Shown here: positions 32,644-40,037 of the stretch, in pieces
Layout of the letters: the number at the start of each line of letters is the position of its first letter
Position numbering within the stretch: the first letter of the stretch is position 1
IMG/VR virus record: IMGVR_UViG_2675903468_000011
Coordinates: 1-42,103 of that record
Length of the DNA stretch: 42,103 nt
Source of the DNA: a virus
Lineage: Duplodnaviria; Heunggongvirae; Uroviricota; Caudoviricetes
Direction: 5' to 3' (one strand)
Translations under genes and position numbers: made by a program
The notes under the pieces: model-generated
What the model was told of the DNA's origin: nothing
The model's database searches: none
What the model saw: the letters and a program-made list of their open reading frames with translations, nothing else

Positions 32644-33243
32644 TCATTTGACCTGATACTTACTTGCATCTACTTTCAATAGCTGTAAATTATACTTATT
32701 TATAACTTCTCGCCCCGGGAAAAGAGTCCAGAACATAAAAACCGTAAACAAACAAAACAACATTACAACAACGCCAAGAACCATATAAACAGTACCCTTA
32801 TTTAGCAACAAACACAGAAATATTAGGCCATACACCAAATAAAAAATAGCTGCAATTTTAGAATACAAGCGATATCGTTTATATTTACCTTTATAACGTA
32901 TAAAAAATCTATCATATTTACATTGAATATGAGGTGCTAAGAACCACCACCGCCAAGATGGCATATCTAATTCAGAATACGTTCTTATATAAAGAATTAA
33001 CGGCCTAAGTTTCAAATTAACCATACCCAAGATGCTTTTTTTGATTTCTCTTTTTATTTCTGCCTTCATAAACTCTAACTCAGAAGGATCAATATACTCC
33101 CGATAATTTTCAAGAATATGTGAGAATTTTGTTGTTTTCGACAAAAACCAACTAACATCATTCAATAATTTATAAACACCCACTGCTGCGGTTATACCTG
33201 GGATTATGAGTCCGACAAGTGCAATAACATCTTTTATTTCCAT
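32644..33243 (-). CDS. Membrane protein, hypothetical (opposite-strand AT-rich insertion)
   Basis: 199 aa; N-terminal TM (VIALVGLIIPGITAAVGVY) and two C-terminal TMs (IAAIFYLVYGLIFLCLLL, VLGVVVMLFCLFTVFMFWTLF); markedly AT-rich; antisense to the surrounding replication operon. Confidence 0.55.
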   Translation of the reverse strand: MEIKDVIALVGLIIPGITAAVGVYKLLNDVSWFLSKTTKFSHILENYREYIDPSELEFMKAEIKREIKKSILGMVNLKLRPLILYIRTYSELDMPSWRWWFLAPHIQCKYDRFFIRYKGKYKRYRLYSKIAAIFYLVYGLIFLCLLLNKGTVYMVLGVVVMLFCLFTVFMFWTLFPGREVINKYNLQLLKVDASKYQVK

Positions 33244-33269: not shown

Positions 33270-35333
33270 ATGTCCAATATACTATGGGGCGACCTGGAAA
33301 CCTATTGCGAAATCCCTATTACGAACGGCACCCATGCGTATGCCGAAGGCGTTGAAGTGATGCTGTTCGCATGGGCTATCAACGACGGGCCAGTAAACGT
33401 ATGGGATATCACTGCTGGTGGCGGTATTCCACACGAATTATACGAAGCAATCGCAGCCTCTGAAACCCTGCTTTATTTCCATAACTCTCACTTCGACCGC
33501 ACCGTTCTGCGTTATGTAATGCCGCGACTGGCACCGCCAGTCGAACGTTGGCGTGACACGATGGTGCAGGCGCTGGCGCACGGTCTCCCGGGGTCTCTGG
33601 GGGAACTCTGCGAAGTACTAGGCGTCCCGCAAGACAAAGCGAAGGACAAAGAAGGTAAAGCGCTGATCCAGCTGTTCTGTAAGCCACGCCCGAAAAACAG
33701 CAAACTGCGTCGGGCCACCAGTAAAACCCACCCGGAAGAATGGCGGCGCTTTGTTGCTTACGCCGGACTGGATATCGAGGCAATGCGCGAAGTCTATAAA
33801 CGTCTGCCGAAGTGGAATTATCAGGGGACAGAGCTGGCGCTCTGGCATCGTGATCAGCAGATCAACGACCGGGGCGTCTGCATGGACATGCAACTCGCGC
33901 GCGCTGCGATCGAAGCGGTAGACCAGGAGCAAAAGCGCCTGGCAAAGCGTACACAGGAAATGACTGATGGCGAAGTGCAGGCAGCCACACAACGGGACGC
34001 GTTGATTAAGCACATCGTTGAATCCTACGGTGTGGAGCTACCAGACATGCAACGCAGTACCCTAGAACGTCGTATAGCCGACCCCGATTTACCATCTGCC
34101 GTGAAAGAACTGCTGGCTATCCGCCTGCAAGCCAGTACTACCAGCACCAGTAAATACAAGGCACTAATGAAAGGCGTAAGCCACGACGGGCGCTTACGCG
34201 GTACGCTACAGTTCTGCGGGGCGTCGCGTACCGGGCGCTGGGCCGGACGGCTATTCCAGCCCCAGAACCTTCCCCGCCCTTCACTAAAACAGGAACAAAT
34301 AGACGAAGGCATCGAAGCACTGAAAGCCGGATGTGCAGACCTGCTGTTTGACAATATCATGGAACTAACCAGTTCAGCGTTACGTGGCTGCATTATCGCG
34401 CCAACAGGCAAAAAACTGGTGGTAAGTGACTTGTCGAACATTGAAGGCCGTATGCTGTCATGGCTGGCAGGAGAAGAATGGAAACTGAATGCATTCAGAG
34501 AGTACGACGCCGGAACGGGTCCGGACTTATATAAACTGGCGTATGCAAAAGCTTTTGATATTGCACCAGATGATGTTGATAAACACATGCGTCAGATCGG
34601 TAAAGTCATGGAACTCGGTCTGGGTTATGGTGGTGGTGTGTCGGCCTTCATCACTTTTGCACTGGTTTACGGTCTCGATCTCGACGAGCTGGCAAACGCT
34701 GCACTGCCAAACATTCCCCGCGATGTTATCCGCGAGGCGAAAAGCTGGTACGGCGAATCGGTTAAACGTAAGTCAACCTACGGGCTTTCTGAACGGGTAT
34801 TTATCGCCTGCGACTCACTTAAACGTCTCTGGCGCAGGGCGCACCCGGCGACCTGCGATTTCTGGTACGAACTGGAGCGCACCGTCCGCACTGCAATCGC
34901 CACACCGCAAAAAACATTGTATTGCGGCTATCTTAAAATCCGCCGCGATGGCGCGTGGCTGCGCATACAGCTACCATCCGGGCGCGCACTCTGCTACCCA
35001 TCCCCGTCCATCGAGAAGGGGAATATCACCTATCAGGGCGTTAACTCCTACTCGCGCAAATGGCAGCGGCTCAAAACCTACGGCGGAAAGCTGGTGGAAA
35101 ACGTCACTCAGGCGGCCGCCCGCGACGTTCTGGCCGGAAACATGCCGCTGATCGAGGATGCCGGTTACAGCATTGTGCTGACGGTACACGATGAGGTGAT
35201 CACCGAAGCGCCGGACACAGACGATTTTAACGATACGGCGCTTTCCGCGCTGCTCTCCACTAACCCCGAATGGGCGCCCGATATCCCGCTGAACGCTGGC
35301 GGCTTCGAGGCGTACCACTACCGTAAGGATTAG
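33270..35333 (+). CDS. Family-A DNA polymerase (3'-5' exonuclease plus polymerase domains)
   Basis: 687 aa; exonuclease-like N-terminus ([10 protein letters not shown]...[12 protein letters not shown]); downstream palm/fingers region ([10 protein letters not shown]...LTVHDEV). Confidence 0.75.
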
Positions 35334-35386
35334 CTGATCGCTGTCATTGCTGCTTTGCTAAATATTGCTTATTTTATAGGAAAATA

Positions 35387-36148
35387 ATGATGCAGGATCT
35401 CAATGAAATGGCTCTCAAATACCCACACCCTGTCGAAACTTTTCGTCAATTTTTAGTCGAATCCGGATTTGATGTTACCGGAGAAGAAAACAAAGCCGGT
35501 CATGATTGTTATCGTTTAAGTAATGGTGCCATCATAACGCTTTACCACACCGGAACGATTTTGATTCAAGGATCACAAGCGGCAAAACCAGAGGTTGAAG
35601 CCATTATTAATGAACACTTGGGTAATGCGCCAGCTCAACGAGTTCAGCCAGCCCTGGTTCAAGAGCCAGCCAAAAAGATTTTCATCGTTCACGGTCACGA
35701 CCATGCAGCAAAAGAGCAGCTTGAGCTCATTCTTCATAAGCTTGGGTTACCTGATCATTTTATTTTGCAGAATACAGGTGGTACTGGACTTACGATAATT
35801 GAAGAACTTGAGCGTGAAATTGGTCAAGGGCAGACAGCGACTCGTTTCGGCATTGTTCTTCTCACTCCCGATGATGTGGGATACTCCAAAAGAGACGGTC
35901 AAGAAGCAGCCCTGCCCAGGGCTCGTCAAAACGTAGTTCTAGAAATGGGGATGTTGTTATCATCACTCGGCCGCAGTAACGTGGTCATCTTGCAGAAGCA
36001 ACACCTTGAACAGCCTTCTGATGCTGCGGGTATTCTTTATCTCAACTTTAATGATCATGTTCGAGAAACTGTACCTCGCTTAATCCAGCGCCTTAAACAG
36101 GCCGGTTTCACATTTAATGAAGCTCAAATAGCGAACGCTTCATCTTAA
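35387..36148 (+). CDS. TIR-like domain protein (N-terminal unknown domain plus C-terminal TIR-like nucleotide-binding fold)
   Basis: 253 aa; C-terminal motifs KKIFIVHGHDHAAKEQLE, GIVLLTPDDVG, RQNVVLEMGMLLSSLGRSNVVIL resemble the bacterial TIR-like (COG4271-type) family from memory; own ribosome-binding site and downstream terminator. Confidence 0.5.
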   Translation: MMQDLNEMALKYPHPVETFRQFLVESGFDVTGEENKAGHDCYRLSNGAIITLYHTGTILIQGSQAAKPEVEAIINEHLGNAPAQRVQPALVQEPAKKIFIVHGHDHAAKEQLELILHKLGLPDHFILQNTGGTGLTIIEELEREIGQGQTATRFGIVLLTPDDVGYSKRDGQEAALPRARQNVVLEMGMLLSSLGRSNVVILQKQHLEQPSDAAGILYLNFNDHVRETVPRLIQRLKQAGFTFNEAQIANASS

Positions 36149-36170
36149 TCAATCATTTTCCTAAAAAGTA

Positions 36171-36196
36171 AAAAGCCCTGCAAATGCAGGGCTTTT
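36171..36196 (+). terminator. Rho-independent terminator
   Basis: GCCCTGCAAATGCAGGGC hairpin followed by TTTTT directly after the TIR-like gene. Confidence 0.7.
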
Positions 36197-36213
36197 TACT
36201 TGAGGTAACCCCT

Positions 36214-36432
36214 ATGTCATTTAAATATCGGGACAGTCCGCTGTACTACCGGACTGCGCGGGAGGCTTTGCGCCTTGAGCAGTCCGGTGAATACGACCTG
36301 GCGGCGAAGGTCTGGGCCAAAGCAAACCGCGAATCACGTAACGAACTTAATCAGGACTGGAGCGAGCGCCGGGCTGATTTTTGCCTGATGCAGAGCATGC
36401 GCGAAAAGCGTAAGGCGGTGGACGATGCCTAA
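36214..36432 (+). CDS. Hypothetical small helical protein
   Basis: 72 aa from ATG preceded by GAGG; the track start at 36184 lies inside the terminator. Confidence 0.4.
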   Translation: MSFKYRDSPLYYRTAREALRLEQSGEYDLAAKVWAKANRESRNELNQDWSERRADFCLMQSMREKRKAVDDA

Positions 36433-36619
36433 CATCGATAATAAAGGGTGGGGTTTTCCCGCCCTGTCGAAAAAAGCGCATTTCTTTAATTCAGGGGAAG
36501 CCATATCGCTATGCGGTAAATGGATGTTCACCGGCATCAGGATTGATGAATGGCATGAACACCCTGAGAACTGCGCTACCTGCATGAAGAAACGCAAAAA
36601 ACAGGAAGGCGAAAAATAA
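36425..36619 (+). CDS. Small Cys/His-containing protein (possible zinc-binding)
   Basis: 64 aa; C-x(n)-H-x-H-x(4)-C-x(2)-C pattern (LCGKW...WHEHPENCATC); overlaps neighbours. Confidence 0.4.
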   Translation: MPNIDNKGWGFPALSKKAHFFNSGEAISLCGKWMFTGIRIDEWHEHPENCATCMKKRKKQEGEK

Positions 36620-36888
36620 TGGCTTACGAACGTGAAAGCCTTATCGAAAAGCACCTCGTCGCCGAAGTGAAAAAGGCTGGCGGGTTGGCCTTTAAGTTCG
36701 TGTCACCCGGTCGCCGCTCGGTACCGGATCGCATTGTCCTGCTCCCCGGCGGTCGCCTCGTTTTCGTTGAATGCAAAGCACCCGGCAAACCACCACGCCC
36801 CGACCAGCTGCGCGAGCACGAACGGCTACGCGCGCTGGGCTTTACCGTGGTGGTACTGGATAGCAAAAATCTGGAGGGGATATTATAA
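36619..36888 (+). CDS. VRR-NUC domain nuclease
   Basis: 89 aa; PD-(D/E)XK-like core (PDRIVLLPGGRLVFVECKAP). Confidence 0.6.
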   Translation: MAYERESLIEKHLVAEVKKAGGLAFKFVSPGRRSVPDRIVLLPGGRLVFVECKAPGKPPRPDQLREHERLRALGFTVVVLDSKNLEGIL

Positions 36889-36889
36889 T

Positions 36890-37450
36890 TTAATCAGTGA
36901 CTTTTTGGTTCTGCTTCTGGTTCTCAAGCATACCTTGAAGTTCAGAATTATCATTTGCGGCAGTTTGCTGATGCTCATGATATTTTTCTTGCGTATAATT
37001 CCTTTCTTTTAACTTTTGTTCATAGTTATTAGAAATAATATCATGACGGTCTTGCAATACTTGTTCAAGTTGATTTTTAAAGTCGTTTATTTTATCTTCG
37101 GAGATCACATTTTTATATTTTTCAATATCACGACGAAGCTCTTTTTCTTTTTTCTTGTTAATACTTAACAACTGTCGATTAACACTGCCTAGTGACCATT
37201 TAAACCCTATCGATTTTATCCAGTGAGCCAAAAACATAGCACAACTAGGAAGTGCTAATAAAAGAAAAGGCTTAATTGAATTTAAATCAGAATCGATATG
37301 TGGGATATGCCCATCCCACGAGGCAACAAGTATGGTCAAAAGCCCTGTGACACCGCCAGCAGCTACATTTGAGAGCAGAGGAACTTTTTCGTAACTATCT
37401 GGCTTAGAGGCGCTACTCAAACGCACCTCCTTTGATTGTTCTTCCAGCAC
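36890..37450 (-). CDS. Membrane protein with C-terminal coiled coil (cassette gene C)
   Basis: 186 aa (alternative TTG start near 37420 after AAGGAGG); two TM segments (VAAGGVTGLLTILVASW, IKPFLLLALPSCAMFLAHWI) then Lys/Glu-rich heptad region; AT-rich. Confidence 0.55.
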   Translation of the reverse strand: MLEEQSKEVRLSSASKPDSYEKVPLLSNVAAGGVTGLLTILVASWDGHIPHIDSDLNSIKPFLLLALPSCAMFLAHWIKSIGFKWSLGSVNRQLLSINKKKEKELRRDIEKYKNVISEDKINDFKNQLEQVLQDRHDIISNNYEQKLKERNYTQEKYHEHQQTAANDNSELQGMLENQKQNQKVTD

Positions 37451-37661
37451 GAATAGCAGTCATCGCAATTTTGTAAAATTCGTCGTCAGAAGAAACATCG
37501 ACTACATCCCGACGAACAGTTCCTTCCGTGTCGATGTATTCAAGTACAAGATGGTGCTTAGATGTAAGCGCAAAGCGTAACCTATCAAACATCATCTTGA
37601 AAACCCAATACAATACAGGAAGAAGGCTAAAAAAAGCCAGCCAGAAAGCAAAAGCAATCAT
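37413..37661 (-). CDS. Small single-pass membrane protein (cassette gene B)
   Basis: 82 aa from ATG preceded by GGGAGGGG; N-terminal TM MIAFAFWLAFFSLLPVLYWVF plus soluble C-terminal domain; stop lies inside the SD/start of gene C. Confidence 0.5.
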   Translation of the reverse strand: MIAFAFWLAFFSLLPVLYWVFKMMFDRLRFALTSKHHLVLEYIDTEGTVRRDVVDVSSDDEFYKIAMTAIRAGRTIKGGAFE

Positions 37662-37683
37662 AGCCCCTCCCCATGTTAGCCTG

Positions 37684-38562
37684 CTATAAGATGCCGTGTA
37701 CTGTAACAACTATGTACGTTTTGTCCAGTGAATTCAAGTTTTCACGAATGAGCAAATCAACGTAGTAGGCATCGCTAAAAACACCGGGCTCTCTTCCAGT
37801 ACTAACACGTTGCAAGAACTCATTATCCTCTATAGATACGCTGATGGTTTCATCGTCATAGTTGACTCGCCAGCCAGTGTTTTTGTCCTTATGGATGGTC
37901 AGAAATGTGATTGGGGCCTCTTCAATCACCCTCTCAGACAAGGATTGCTCGACAGGAACACGCCGATATCTGAAAGGTTCAATACCATCTTCATGTACAT
38001 TAACTAACTCCACCCCTTGCTGGGTTGAAATCTTAAGCGATTCATACCCCTCCTTTTGCAAAGGGTTATGTATTAACTTCGATAACGATTTACGTATGCT
38101 CGGGGAAGCAAGTAAAGGTCGGAAATAGGAAGGAGCTATAATTTCCTCACCATCATCCATAATTATTTTACAATCTCCTTCCGCAGTTAAAGTCAACCGC
38201 CGTATTTGCCTACCATTAATTTGACGAATTAGGTCAATAAGAGTATTTCCTGCGGCAAGCGCGGCTGTGCCTCCGATACCAATAATGCTCAGAATATTCA
38301 AGTGATCAAGCGGATTTTGAATAATATCAATCAAATATTCGAATGAGCCTTCTCTGAATGGCTCAACTTCAACATTAATATTCTCGCTAGTACCATTGAC
38401 AACCAAATTAACTTCTTTCAGCAGGCTATTTAGACCATTTAATGACTCAGTTAAAACATCCAAATCTATTTTATGATCTGCTAGCGCTGGCCCATCATAT
38501 TTAACCACTAGCTTATCTATTATATTTTCTTCTTGCTGAATATCAGTGCTATTTGACGTCAT
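37684..38562 (-). CDS. Hypothetical soluble protein (cassette gene A)
   Basis: 292 aa; AAGGA ribosome-binding site; AT-rich; no recognisable motif; first gene of three-gene minus-strand cassette. Confidence 0.55.
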   Translation of the reverse strand: MTSNSTDIQQEENIIDKLVVKYDGPALADHKIDLDVLTESLNGLNSLLKEVNLVVNGTSENINVEVEPFREGSFEYLIDIIQNPLDHLNILSIIGIGGTAALAAGNTLIDLIRQINGRQIRRLTLTAEGDCKIIMDDGEEIIAPSYFRPLLASPSIRKSLSKLIHNPLQKEGYESLKISTQQGVELVNVHEDGIEPFRYRRVPVEQSLSERVIEEAPITFLTIHKDKNTGWRVNYDDETISVSIEDNEFLQRVSTGREPGVFSDAYYVDLLIRENLNSLDKTYIVVTVHGIL

Positions 38563-38639
38563 AACCGTTCCTTTTTAAGACAATAATTAAAGTTAATCAA
38601 ACCGTTGCTACTTAAATTCACTTATGAGGACACAATAAC

Positions 38640-40037
38640 ATGGCCTATGCTATGTTTTCACCCCGCCCTTATCAAGACCTCATCATCAACCACGAAATAG
38701 ACACCTTGCGCTGCAACATCTGGGCAGGCATGGGTATGGGTAAAACCGTGGCGACGCTCACCACGCTGGAAGATCTCTTTATAGCGGGAGCGGAGACTCA
38801 GCCCGCGCTGGTTCTCGCGCCGCTGCGCGTGGCGGCCAGCACCTGGCCGGATGAAGCGGTTAAATGGGGGCATCTGCGCAATATCGAGGTGCAGCCGATT
38901 GTCGGTAATGCCAAAGCGCGCGCGGCGGCGCTGGCGAACAGTAACGCCAGCGTGTTTACCATCAACTACGACAATCTGGTCTGGCTGGTCGAAGAGCTGG
39001 GCGGCCGCTGGCCGTTCGGTACCGTCATCCCCGACGAAAGCACCCGACTGAAATCCTTCCGGCTGCGCGGGGGCGGTAAGCGCGCGGCGGCGCTGGGCAA
39101 GGTGGCGCATAAGTATGTCCGGCGCTGGATGAATCTCACCGGTACACCAGCGCCGAATGGCCTGGTTGATTTGTGGGGGCAGGCGTGGTTTGTGGATCAG
39201 GGGCAGCGCCTCGGGCGAACTTACGGCGCCTTTACCTCCCGCTGGTTCAACTCAATTCAGTTTCCGGGGCAGAGCTGGACGAAGCTGGAGCCTTTCGCAC
39301 ACTCGCAGGACGAAATACAGCGTGCACTGGCCGACGTGACTATCTCCCTTGATGCGGCCGACTGGTTCGATATCAAAGAGCCCATCCATAACGTGATCCG
39401 CGTGGACATGCCGCCGAAGGCACGCCAGCAGTATCGTGAAATGGAAAAGGAAATGTTTCTCGAACTGAACGGCGAAGGCATCGAAGCGCCGAACGCTGCG
39501 GCAAAGACAGTGAAGTGTCTGCAAATTGCCAGCGGCGCAGTGTACACCGACGACGCCGGGAGCTGGTCAGAACTGCACGACGCGAAGCTGCAGGCGCTGG
39601 ACAGTATTCTCACCGAAGCAGCTGGCGCACCGGTGCTGGTGGCCTATCACTGGAAACACGATCTTGAACGCTTGCTTAAAGCATTCCCTCGCGGTCGTCA
39701 CCTCGACCAGGATCCACAGACACTGCGCGACTGGAATTCAGGAAAGATTCCTGTTCTCTTTGCACACCCTGCCAGCGCGGGCCACGGCCTGAACATGCAG
39801 GACGGCGGGAATATACTGGTATTTTTCTCACACTGGTGGGACCTGGAGCAGTATCAGCAAATTATTGAACGTATCGGCTCAACCAGACAGATACAGGCCG
39901 GACACAATCGTCCGGTATTTATTCACCACATTATTGCTGCCGACACTATGGACGAAATGGTGATGGAGCGGCGCAACTCAAAACGAACAGTGCAGGACAT
40001 CCTGCTCGATGCCATGAAAAAGAGAGGTATAGCATGA
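38640..40037 (+). CDS. SNF2/DEAD-like helicase
   Basis: 465 aa; Walker A GMGMGKT, DEAH-like box VIPDESTRLK, motif LTGTPAPNG; higher GC than neighbours. Confidence 0.8.
   Translation: MAYAMFSPRPYQDLIINHEIDTLRCNIWAGMGMGKTVATLTTLEDLFIAGAETQPALVLAPLRVAASTWPDEAVKWGHLRNIEVQPIVGNAKARAAALANSNASVFTINYDNLVWLVEELGGRWPFGTVIPDESTRLKSFRLRGGGKRAAALGKVAHKYVRRWMNLTGTPAPNGLVDLWGQAWFVDQGQRLGRTYGAFTSRWFNSIQFPGQSWTKLEPFAHSQDEIQRALADVTISLDAADWFDIKEPIHNVIRVDMPPKARQQYREMEKEMFLELNGEGIEAPNAAAKTVKCLQIASGAVYTDDAGSWSELHDAKLQALDSILTEAAGAPVLVAYHWKHDLERLLKAFPRGRHLDQDPQTLRDWNSGKIPVLFAHPASAGHGLNMQDGGNILVFFSHWWDLEQYQQIIERIGSTRQIQAGHNRPVFIHHIIAADTMDEMVMERRNSKRTVQDILLDAMKKRGIA

Follow-up and report, generated by a model that had tools for sequence, protein, structure and literature searches.

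A prophage-encoded TIR protein with an RNase HIII-type TBP-like N-terminal domain: a candidate single-gene anti-phage system

The window analysed here is the whole 42,103-nucleotide stretch of IMG/VR virus record IMGVR_UViG_2675903468_000011 and is, as judged by its annotated relatives, a temperate prophage of approximately 42 kb of an Escherichia coli-associated type. An open reading frame (ORF) at positions 35387-36148 of its plus strand encodes a protein of 253 amino acids (aa), the C-terminal part of which is a TIR domain and the N-terminal part of which can, on structural modelling and sequence comparison, be assigned as an RNase HIII-type TBP-like domain. We consider it probable that this protein is a single-polypeptide anti-phage candidate of the abortive-infection type, acting as an NAD+-hydrolysing enzyme (NADase) and carried as cargo by the temperate prophage; NADase activity, role in defence and trigger are all matters that we infer by analogy with TIR-STING, TIR-SAVED and SpbK. 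The gene is a member of a catalogued candidate family that is already in RefSeq and PADLOC, and it is the N-terminal domain that is the unstudied part. The features discussed below are as follows (window coordinates):

35334..36209, plus strand: accessory insert of 876 bp (leader, ORF and terminator), from the polymerase stop codon to the start of the ANR gene, delimited by alignment with sister prophages
35334..35386, plus strand: leader of 53 nt, with a Shine-Dalgarno-like AGGA at 35377-35380, read directly from the sequence
35387..36148, plus strand: ORF of 253 aa with an ATG start, stop codon included; full-length member of PDC-S35 and phrog_16442
35411..35620, plus strand: RNase HIII-type TBP-like domain (aa 9-78), modelled by AlphaFold2 as helix, four strands, helix
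35621..35671, plus strand: variable linker, predicted to be disordered (aa 79-95; predicted local distance difference test score, pLDDT, below 50 at residues 81-92)
35672..36145, plus strand: TIR domain of the Cap12/PycTIR type (aa 96-253), from Pfam PF10137, PDB profile matches and Foldseek
35924..35950, plus strand: active-site motif R180-Q-N182-V-V-L-E186-M-G188, aligned with RDNVVFEFG of SfSTING/Cap12
36020..36022, plus strand: D212 in a P-S-D loop, the counterpart of SfSTING D110 in a hidden Markov model (HMM) alignment of PsD with PTD
36166..36201, no strand assigned: intrinsic-terminator hairpin, from folding, preceded by an A-run and followed by a T-run

The TIR domain and the TBP-like domain

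The C-terminal 158 amino acids are a TIR domain of the Cap12/PycTIR type. With 107.4 bits (E 5.8e-31), the match to Pfam PF10137 (CAP12/Pycsar effector TIR domain) exceeds the cut-off of 24.7, and it aligns residues 97-222 with positions 1-118 of the 119 in the profile. Among solved structures, the best matches of the family profile are Cap12/TIR-STING (7un8, 9lmq) and PycTIR (8jsj). When the AlphaFold2 model was used as a Foldseek query, TIR-STING 9lmq (E 6e-4, probability 1.00) was again among the best matches, and the other top matches were SARM1, the TIR-APAZ protein of SPARTA and the TIR domains of MAL and MyD88. The sequence-only reading that preceded this analysis had recognised a TIR-like C-terminus from the motifs FIVHGHD, LLTPDD and NVVLEMG, which lie at aa 99-105, 158-163 and 182-188, respectively; the Pfam, PADLOC, PDB profile and Foldseek matches bear this out. 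It had also named nucleoside 2-deoxyribosyltransferases as the fold that would speak against it. No Pfam match to that fold was obtained even at E <= 1 and none was present among the 50 Foldseek matches listed, so that no profile or fold search pointed to these enzymes.

The HMM alignment places R180, N182 and E186 opposite R78, N80 and E84 of SfSTING, the first two of which are its substrate-binding residues and the third its catalytic one (PMC9402430). R180, N182, E186 and G188 are each present in all 46 of the homologues compared, which come from several phyla, and Q181, V183 and V184 are likewise invariant. In the SfSTING filament, each TIR active site is made complete by D110 of the partner domain (PMC9402430). 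The corresponding loop of the window protein is equally constrained, with P210, S211 and D212 invariant (46/46), and the distance from the catalytic glutamate to the loop aspartate is 26 residues in both proteins. Since R180, N182, E186 and D212 are invariant and align with the SfSTING set, the glutamate that had been proposed as catalytic from the sequence alone (the E of LEMG, here E186 aligned with E84) is the correct one, and the domain looks catalytically competent.

The N-terminal 100 amino acids had been left unassigned, a verdict now superseded by the structural model and by PDB, Pfam and fusion-protein matches, from which an RNase HIII-type TBP-like domain can be assigned. AlphaFold2 models residues 9-78 with a pLDDT of approximately 90 in the full-length protein and of 87 when the domain is modelled alone. 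The predicted fold is a monopartite TBP-like one (helix, antiparallel sheet, helix), as in the N-terminal domain of RNase HIII (DUF3378). When the N-domain profile was compared with PDB sequences, the two best matches were RNase HIII (E 0.13) and LsoA (E 0.68), and the motif Y-x-T-G-x-x-x-x-Q-G-K is common to the N-domain, RNase HIII and LsoA alignments. As single sequences, 6 of 24 family members match the Pfam family RnlA_toxin (best E 9e-5) and 4 of 24 match DUF3378. Furthermore, the N-domain profile matches, with an E-value of 2.7e-13, the TBP-like N-terminus of a protein in which RNase HIII is joined to DinG.

The N-domain of Ta-RNase H3 binds RNA/DNA hybrids specifically, through E27, H28, R32, Y43 and G52 (PMC4132731). 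In the homologues of the window protein, position 43 is basic (44/46), position 53 is aromatic (46/46) and position 62 is glycine (45/46); the three conserved positions resemble the Ta-RNase H3 contacts R32, Y43 and G52, and the spacing from the aromatic residue to the glycine, 9 residues, is equal in the two. This kinship with RNase HIII, taken together with the conserved contact-type residues, may point to RNA/DNA hybrids as the trigger. The net charge of the N-domain, -6 in the window allele (the family ranges from -6 to +4, with a mean of about -1), may point to a protein ligand. In either case we presume the N-domain to be a sensor or recruitment domain. Mean pairwise identity is 35% for the N-domain versus 72.5% for the TIR domain (17% for the linker, the length of which differs between homologues), and the combination of a fast-evolving N-domain with a near-frozen TIR domain would fit a sensor/effector arrangement.

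The N-domain is also reused outside the TIR family. Its profile recovered 927 proteins at E <= 1e-3 from 1.84 billion cluster representatives. We found the domain fused to a multi-pass membrane region (P0205), to a segment matching a dCTP-deaminase defence profile (P0186; E 4e-29) and to DUF1653 (P0194), as well as in a tandem copy (P0175); in a metagenomic protein of 1,234 aa (P0219), repeated TBP-like domains are followed by RNase HIII (PDB 4py5, E 2e-21) and then by a DinG helicase. Such a combination of one variable domain with different toxic outputs is typical of defence sensor modules, and its recurrence beside other kinds of effector suggests that the N-domain represents a portable sensor family. 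A more far-reaching proposal, possible if on the whole doubtful, is that the TBP-like domain constitutes a new class of portable infection sensor for RNA/DNA hybrids or a similar replication intermediate. A polymeric ligand such as an RNA/DNA hybrid would then line up many copies of the protein and thereby switch on the TIR NADase. If true, this would be the first TIR effector to be triggered directly by a nucleic-acid hybrid, and the sensor family, itself new, would be common to several abortive-infection effectors. As a separate observation, the DinG part of P0219 is related to type IV CRISPR-associated DinG proteins (PADLOC typeIV_DinG, E 2e-61), and this protein is an unusual joining of a hybrid-cleaving nuclease with a helicase.

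Genomic contexts and competing explanations

The window protein belongs to the PADLOC family PDC-S35 (PDLC05003), with an E-value of 2.6e-109 and with residues 11-253 aligned to profile positions 3-245 of 245. It also matches phrog_16442 (E 1.2e-77), which is annotated as being of unknown function, and is 99% identical to RefSeq entries named 'TIR domain-containing protein'. The family comprises 3,310 matches, and the architecture of approximately 250 aa is kept in Proteobacteria, Acidobacteria and Planctomycetes. The PDC families are a set of 145 'untested phage defence candidates' obtained from genes that lie within BREX, DISARM and type I restriction-modification (RM) loci (bioRxiv 10.1101/2024.01.29.577857). 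The TIR protein of Serratia SDIC1A, found in the literature, differs in its architecture. A homologue that covers mainly the TIR domain, annotated 'nucleotide-binding protein', is found on 1,141 PLSDB plasmids, for example NZ_CP057562.1 (8403-8873) and NZ_CP077808.1 (131474-131944). Klebsiella, Escherichia and Salmonella are the source of most of these plasmids, and around half are predicted to be conjugative. In the plasmid matches listed, the first third or more of the query is missing, and the enterobacterial ones among them cover aa 87-251 at approximately 37% identity and are entirely without the TBP-like domain.

Within the prophage, the gene occupies an accessory slot between the polymerase gene and the ANR gene. 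In the prophages of E. coli B379 and EC0585 the ANR start codon lies 4-5 nt past the polymerase stop codon. The G+C content across the insert is 0.41-0.48, versus 0.56-0.59 in the polymerase gene. A second allele is found in the same slot of 606R2, KY171 and 82.0312; the two prophage alleles share 72% protein identity overall, with the differences concentrated in the N-domain, and a 62%-identical allele occupies the same slot in Providencia. In other prophages of the family the interval from the polymerase to the nuclease gene contains a methyltransferase, an ATP-binding protein, DUF7446, Ant, Bro-N or nothing. As the slot is empty in sister prophages and the polymerase-to-nuclease interval holds different cargo in others, the insert is accessory, moron-like cargo. 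That the gene is an autonomous unit outside the replication core had been suspected from its position, and the polymerase-to-ANR gap of only 4 nt in a sister prophage agrees with this.

Homologues elsewhere are found in a variety of settings: in an island with an integrase, Mrr and PemK; in an island with DUF4062, a reverse transcriptase and ParDE; overlapping an Eco57I-type methyltransferase gene with XhoI after it; in an integron-like cassette array of Vibrio parahaemolyticus; in a recombinase and RHS island of Ralstonia; beside SymE in Rhodanobacter; and in a prophage remnant of Klebsiella. Across these seven contexts no conserved neighbour gene was found, and the TIR gene is therefore a single-gene system with no obligatory partner. 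On several metagenomic contigs, among them L026 (3612-6117) and L027 (6001-8506), the TIR ORF overlaps the start of the Eco57I-type N6-methyltransferase gene by 14 nt and a gene for an XhoI-family endonuclease follows, an arrangement that suggests co-transcription of the TIR ORF with the RM system.

In the Klebsiella context (Klebsiella sp. Ap-873, L019 6586-10444), extensive deletions have reduced the same prophage replication module to a remnant: the DUF2815, polymerase, VRR-NUC and helicase genes survive only as fragments, whereas the TIR ORF is intact. The persistence of an intact TIR ORF in a decayed prophage argues for a benefit to the host. The remnant adjoins P4-like satellite genes (Psu, Ogr/Delta, an integrase and an AAA_15/21 ATPase). 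We considered the locus as an independent insertion into a P4 satellite and rejected this, since the alignment identifies it as a decayed remnant of the same prophage family located beside P4-like genes.

The model that we favour is as follows. In an undisturbed lysogen the protein would be inactive. Upon infection by another phage, the N-domain would bind a multivalent cue, for which an RNA/DNA hybrid, another phage replication intermediate or an oligomeric phage protein are candidates. Binding would concentrate the TIR domains and allow them to pack against each other, with D212 of one subunit completing the active site of its neighbour; NAD+ would be hydrolysed, and the infected cell would no longer support phage growth. 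No partner gene would be needed. Activation along these lines has been demonstrated for TIR-STING (PMC9402430) and for SpbK (PMC12847820).

Of the other explanations, the one that survives best, unlikely as we judge it to be, assigns the protein to the lytic cycle of the phage itself, either as an accessory enzyme of nucleotide or NAD metabolism or as a counter-defence enzyme that removes NAD-derived immune signals of the host, transcribed together with the polymerase. The gene is indeed located directly after the polymerase gene, co-oriented with the replication operon and lacking a consensus promoter of its own, and neighbouring slots in sister prophages hold genes of nucleotide-modification type (DUF4406, Nmad5 and methyltransferases). 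Moreover, the presence of the gene in the same slot of Escherichia, Providencia and Klebsiella prophages, with alleles that are 62-72% identical to the window protein, suggests long residence in the phage lineage. However, only 4 of 50,697 phage records encode the protein, and most prophages of the family do without it: among 5,426 complete E. coli genomes the polymerase region is present in 159 and the TIR gene in only 10. Most homologues lie in non-phage islands, beside RM systems or in integron-like arrays; a remnant that has lost the polymerase and the helicase has nevertheless kept an intact ORF, and neither nucleoside 2-deoxyribosyltransferases nor other metabolic families were matched.

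We regard as very unlikely a signal-generating TIR enzyme of the ThsB type, which would supply a messenger resembling cyclic ADP-ribose (cADPR) to a host effector or to the three-gene cassette on the minus strand of the window (36890-38562). TIR enzymes can produce cyclic ADPR signals, SpbK itself making N1-cADPR (PMC12847820), and the cassette, which the sequence-only reading had called membrane-associated and had considered as a possible functional partner, is only 742 bp downstream of the TIR gene. Its distribution contradicts such a link: in the same set of complete E. coli genomes the TIR gene is present in 10, the cassette in 17 (in copies that are approximately 85% identical) and both together in none, and each is found alone in the same backbone, the cassette without the TIR gene in EC0585 and the TIR gene with other cargo in the cassette slot in STEC383. 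The cassette has a slot of its own, between the VRR-NUC and helicase genes, and its first and largest gene (37684-38562) belongs to a separate single-gene candidate family, PADLOC PDC-S42 (E 3.2e-37; Pfam DUF7946). The prophage thus carries, in the cassette, a second defence candidate that is independent of the TIR gene. The closest characterised relatives of the TIR domain, Cap12/TIR-STING and PycTIR, deplete NAD+ rather than make signals, and since no partner gene is conserved across the seven contexts, Thoeris-type signalling in general is unlikely.

Finally, a prophage maintenance or addiction toxin, or a general stress growth-arrest module rather than a phage sensor, is the least probable explanation: active TIR NADases are intrinsically toxic and the gene does persist in a decayed prophage, but no antitoxin-like small ORF is conserved beside it in any context examined, and the variable N-domain, the near-frozen TIR domain and the reuse of the N-domain with other effectors are better accommodated by a sensor/effector protein.

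Several points weigh against the preferred reading of the protein as an abortive-infection NADase with an N-terminal sensor. Its expression in the lysogen is uncertain: the gene runs in the direction of the replication operon, no consensus sigma-70 promoter was returned on the plus strand upstream of it when 34400-35450 and 35000-38800 were scanned, and the only promoter candidate visible by eye is a weak one (TTGCTG-17 nt-TATTTT). The PDC systems are 'untested' according to their own authors and have been excluded as unvalidated by other authors, and a literature search for the PDC-S35 family yielded no paper that names PDC-S35, describes its N-domain or a TBP-like/TIR fusion, or reports an experiment. 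The TIR part of the structural model is moderately confident (pLDDT 51-86), and the single-sequence Pfam score for RNase HIII is 17.7 bits, below the cut-off of 27. The N-domain charge of -6 does not suit simple electrostatic binding of nucleic acids, and some of the non-TIR fusions are metagenomic gene predictions that may be truncated.

Should the model hold, a protein of approximately 250 aa would rank among the smallest self-contained sense-and-kill immune modules, and the prophage carrying it would protect its host. What is new here is the sensor: as an RNase HIII-type TBP-like domain, it suggests as the trigger RNA/DNA hybrids or a phage factor binding the same surface of the domain.

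Leader, terminator and further variable slots

The ORF at 35387-36148 (plus strand), the three motifs named above and the hairpin downstream, all of which had been read from the sequence beforehand, are present in it. The start codon is ambiguous by one codon (ATGATG); in the alignment, the other allele begins at the second ATG (35390). The upstream neighbour is the family-A DNA polymerase ORF (33270-35333), and the leader between the two differs in sequence in the second allele. The terminator is a perfect hairpin, AAAAAGCCCTGCAAATGCAGGGCTTTTT (36166-36201), 18 nt past the stop codon of the TIR gene; positions 36175-36192 are its G+C core, and a T-run occupies 36193-36197. At -28.1 kcal/mol (z = -6.65) it is more stable than any of 200 shuffled sequences, and it is potentially bidirectional. 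A consensus terminator scan did not report this hairpin, probably owing to pairing between the A-run and the T-run, which lengthens the stem. Rfam gave only sub-threshold matches in the region, all of them on the hairpin, on both strands, and to terminator-bearing families. In the second allele a hairpin and T-run of other sequence are located at the equivalent place. This strong terminator divides a replication operon whose genes run in one direction, which implies that transcription of the ANR, VRR-NUC and helicase genes downstream depends either on antitermination or on promoters of their own.

Structural genes occupy the minus strand of the window. The other genes include those for VapE, a LexA-like repressor, DUF2800, a DUF2815/single-stranded DNA-binding (SSB)-like protein and the family-A DNA polymerase, as well as the ANR-family regulator, VRR-NUC, an SNF2 helicase and an integrase. 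The prophage of E. coli STEC383 is integrated beside yfhL, shoB and acpS, and sequenced induced phages of the window's type exist, for instance vB_EcoM-606R2. Three small plus-strand genes lie between the TIR gene and the minus-strand cassette: the ANR-family regulator (36214-36432), a 64-aa ORF (36425-36619) and VRR-NUC (36619-36888).

The TIR gene and the cassette do not mark the only variable positions of the replication module. A 199-aa ORF (32644-33243, minus strand) with a very low G+C content of 0.30-0.33, seemingly a membrane protein, occupies a third such slot, which separates the DUF2815/SSB-like gene from the polymerase gene. In a Providencia relative this slot holds a gene for a Mrr_cat nuclease (L029 2967-3863) and in E. 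coli relatives different hypothetical genes, so that it looks like another cargo hotspot. The 64-aa ORF (plus strand), located between the ANR regulator gene and VRR-NUC, has two cysteine pairs suggested by its sequence (CGKW...CATC) and is possibly a zinc ribbon; in sister prophages it is replaced by a DUF4406 gene or another small ORF, making this a fourth variable position in the module. The replication module of the window prophage thus has at least three independent cargo slots with candidate defence genes, namely PDC-S35, PDC-S42 and the low-GC membrane ORF, which makes the prophage a convenient natural system for studying PADLOC candidates.

Comparison with known systems

The closest solved TIR domains, those of Cap12/TIR-STING (SfSTING, PDB 7UN8; 9LMQ) and PycTIR (8JSJ), belong to the same Pfam family, PF10137. 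The R-x-N-x-x-x-E motif and the loop with the trans-acting aspartate are conserved between these proteins and the window protein, and activation by oligomerisation is likely to be a shared logic. The sensor position of the window protein, however, is N-terminal and TBP-like: no STING, SAVED or cyclic-nucleotide-monophosphate-binding domain was found in it, the TBP-like domain being the only non-TIR region besides the linker. Correspondingly specific models score low, with 32 bits against a cut-off of 450 for the NCBIfam Cap12 equivalog models and a weak match (E 3e-10), mostly to the linker and TIR domain (aa 66-233), for the PADLOC PycTIR model. No cyclase gene (CD-NTase or PycC) was found near the TIR gene or in the homologue contexts examined, nor was a ThsA-like partner of the Thoeris kind conserved in these contexts. 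Lacking a cyclase, a ThsA-like partner and a cyclic-nucleotide sensor domain, the protein was rejected as a member of CBASS, Pycsar or Thoeris.

Within PDC-S35, a 'guilt-by-embedding' candidate family, the window protein shares its two-domain, single-gene architecture of approximately 250 aa with more than 3,000 homologues, and nothing sets it apart from them. Its N-domain compares with the substrate-binding N-domain of RNase HIII (DUF3378; PDB 4PY5, 3VN5 and 2D0A) and with the TBP-like N-terminal domain (NTD) and NRD of the toxins RnlA and LsoA. It differs from these in that the domain of the window allele is acidic and falls below the Pfam threshold as a single sequence, and in its output, which is a TIR domain in the window protein and an RNase H or HEPN nuclease in RNase HIII, RnlA and LsoA.

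Finally, the nearest parallel in layout is SpbK of the Bacillus subtilis element ICEBs1, a protein of 266 aa with an N-terminal sensor of approximately 94 aa, a linker and a TIR domain; it is a mobile-element-borne abortive-infection NADase that is activated when its N-domains cluster on the phage portal (PMC12847820). PDB sequence searches detected no sequence relationship between the two proteins, and while the N-domain of SpbK is a portal-binding four-helix bundle, that of the window protein is predicted to be a helix-strands-helix TBP-like domain. What they have in common is a single-gene TIR protein on a mobile element, of near-equal size and layout.

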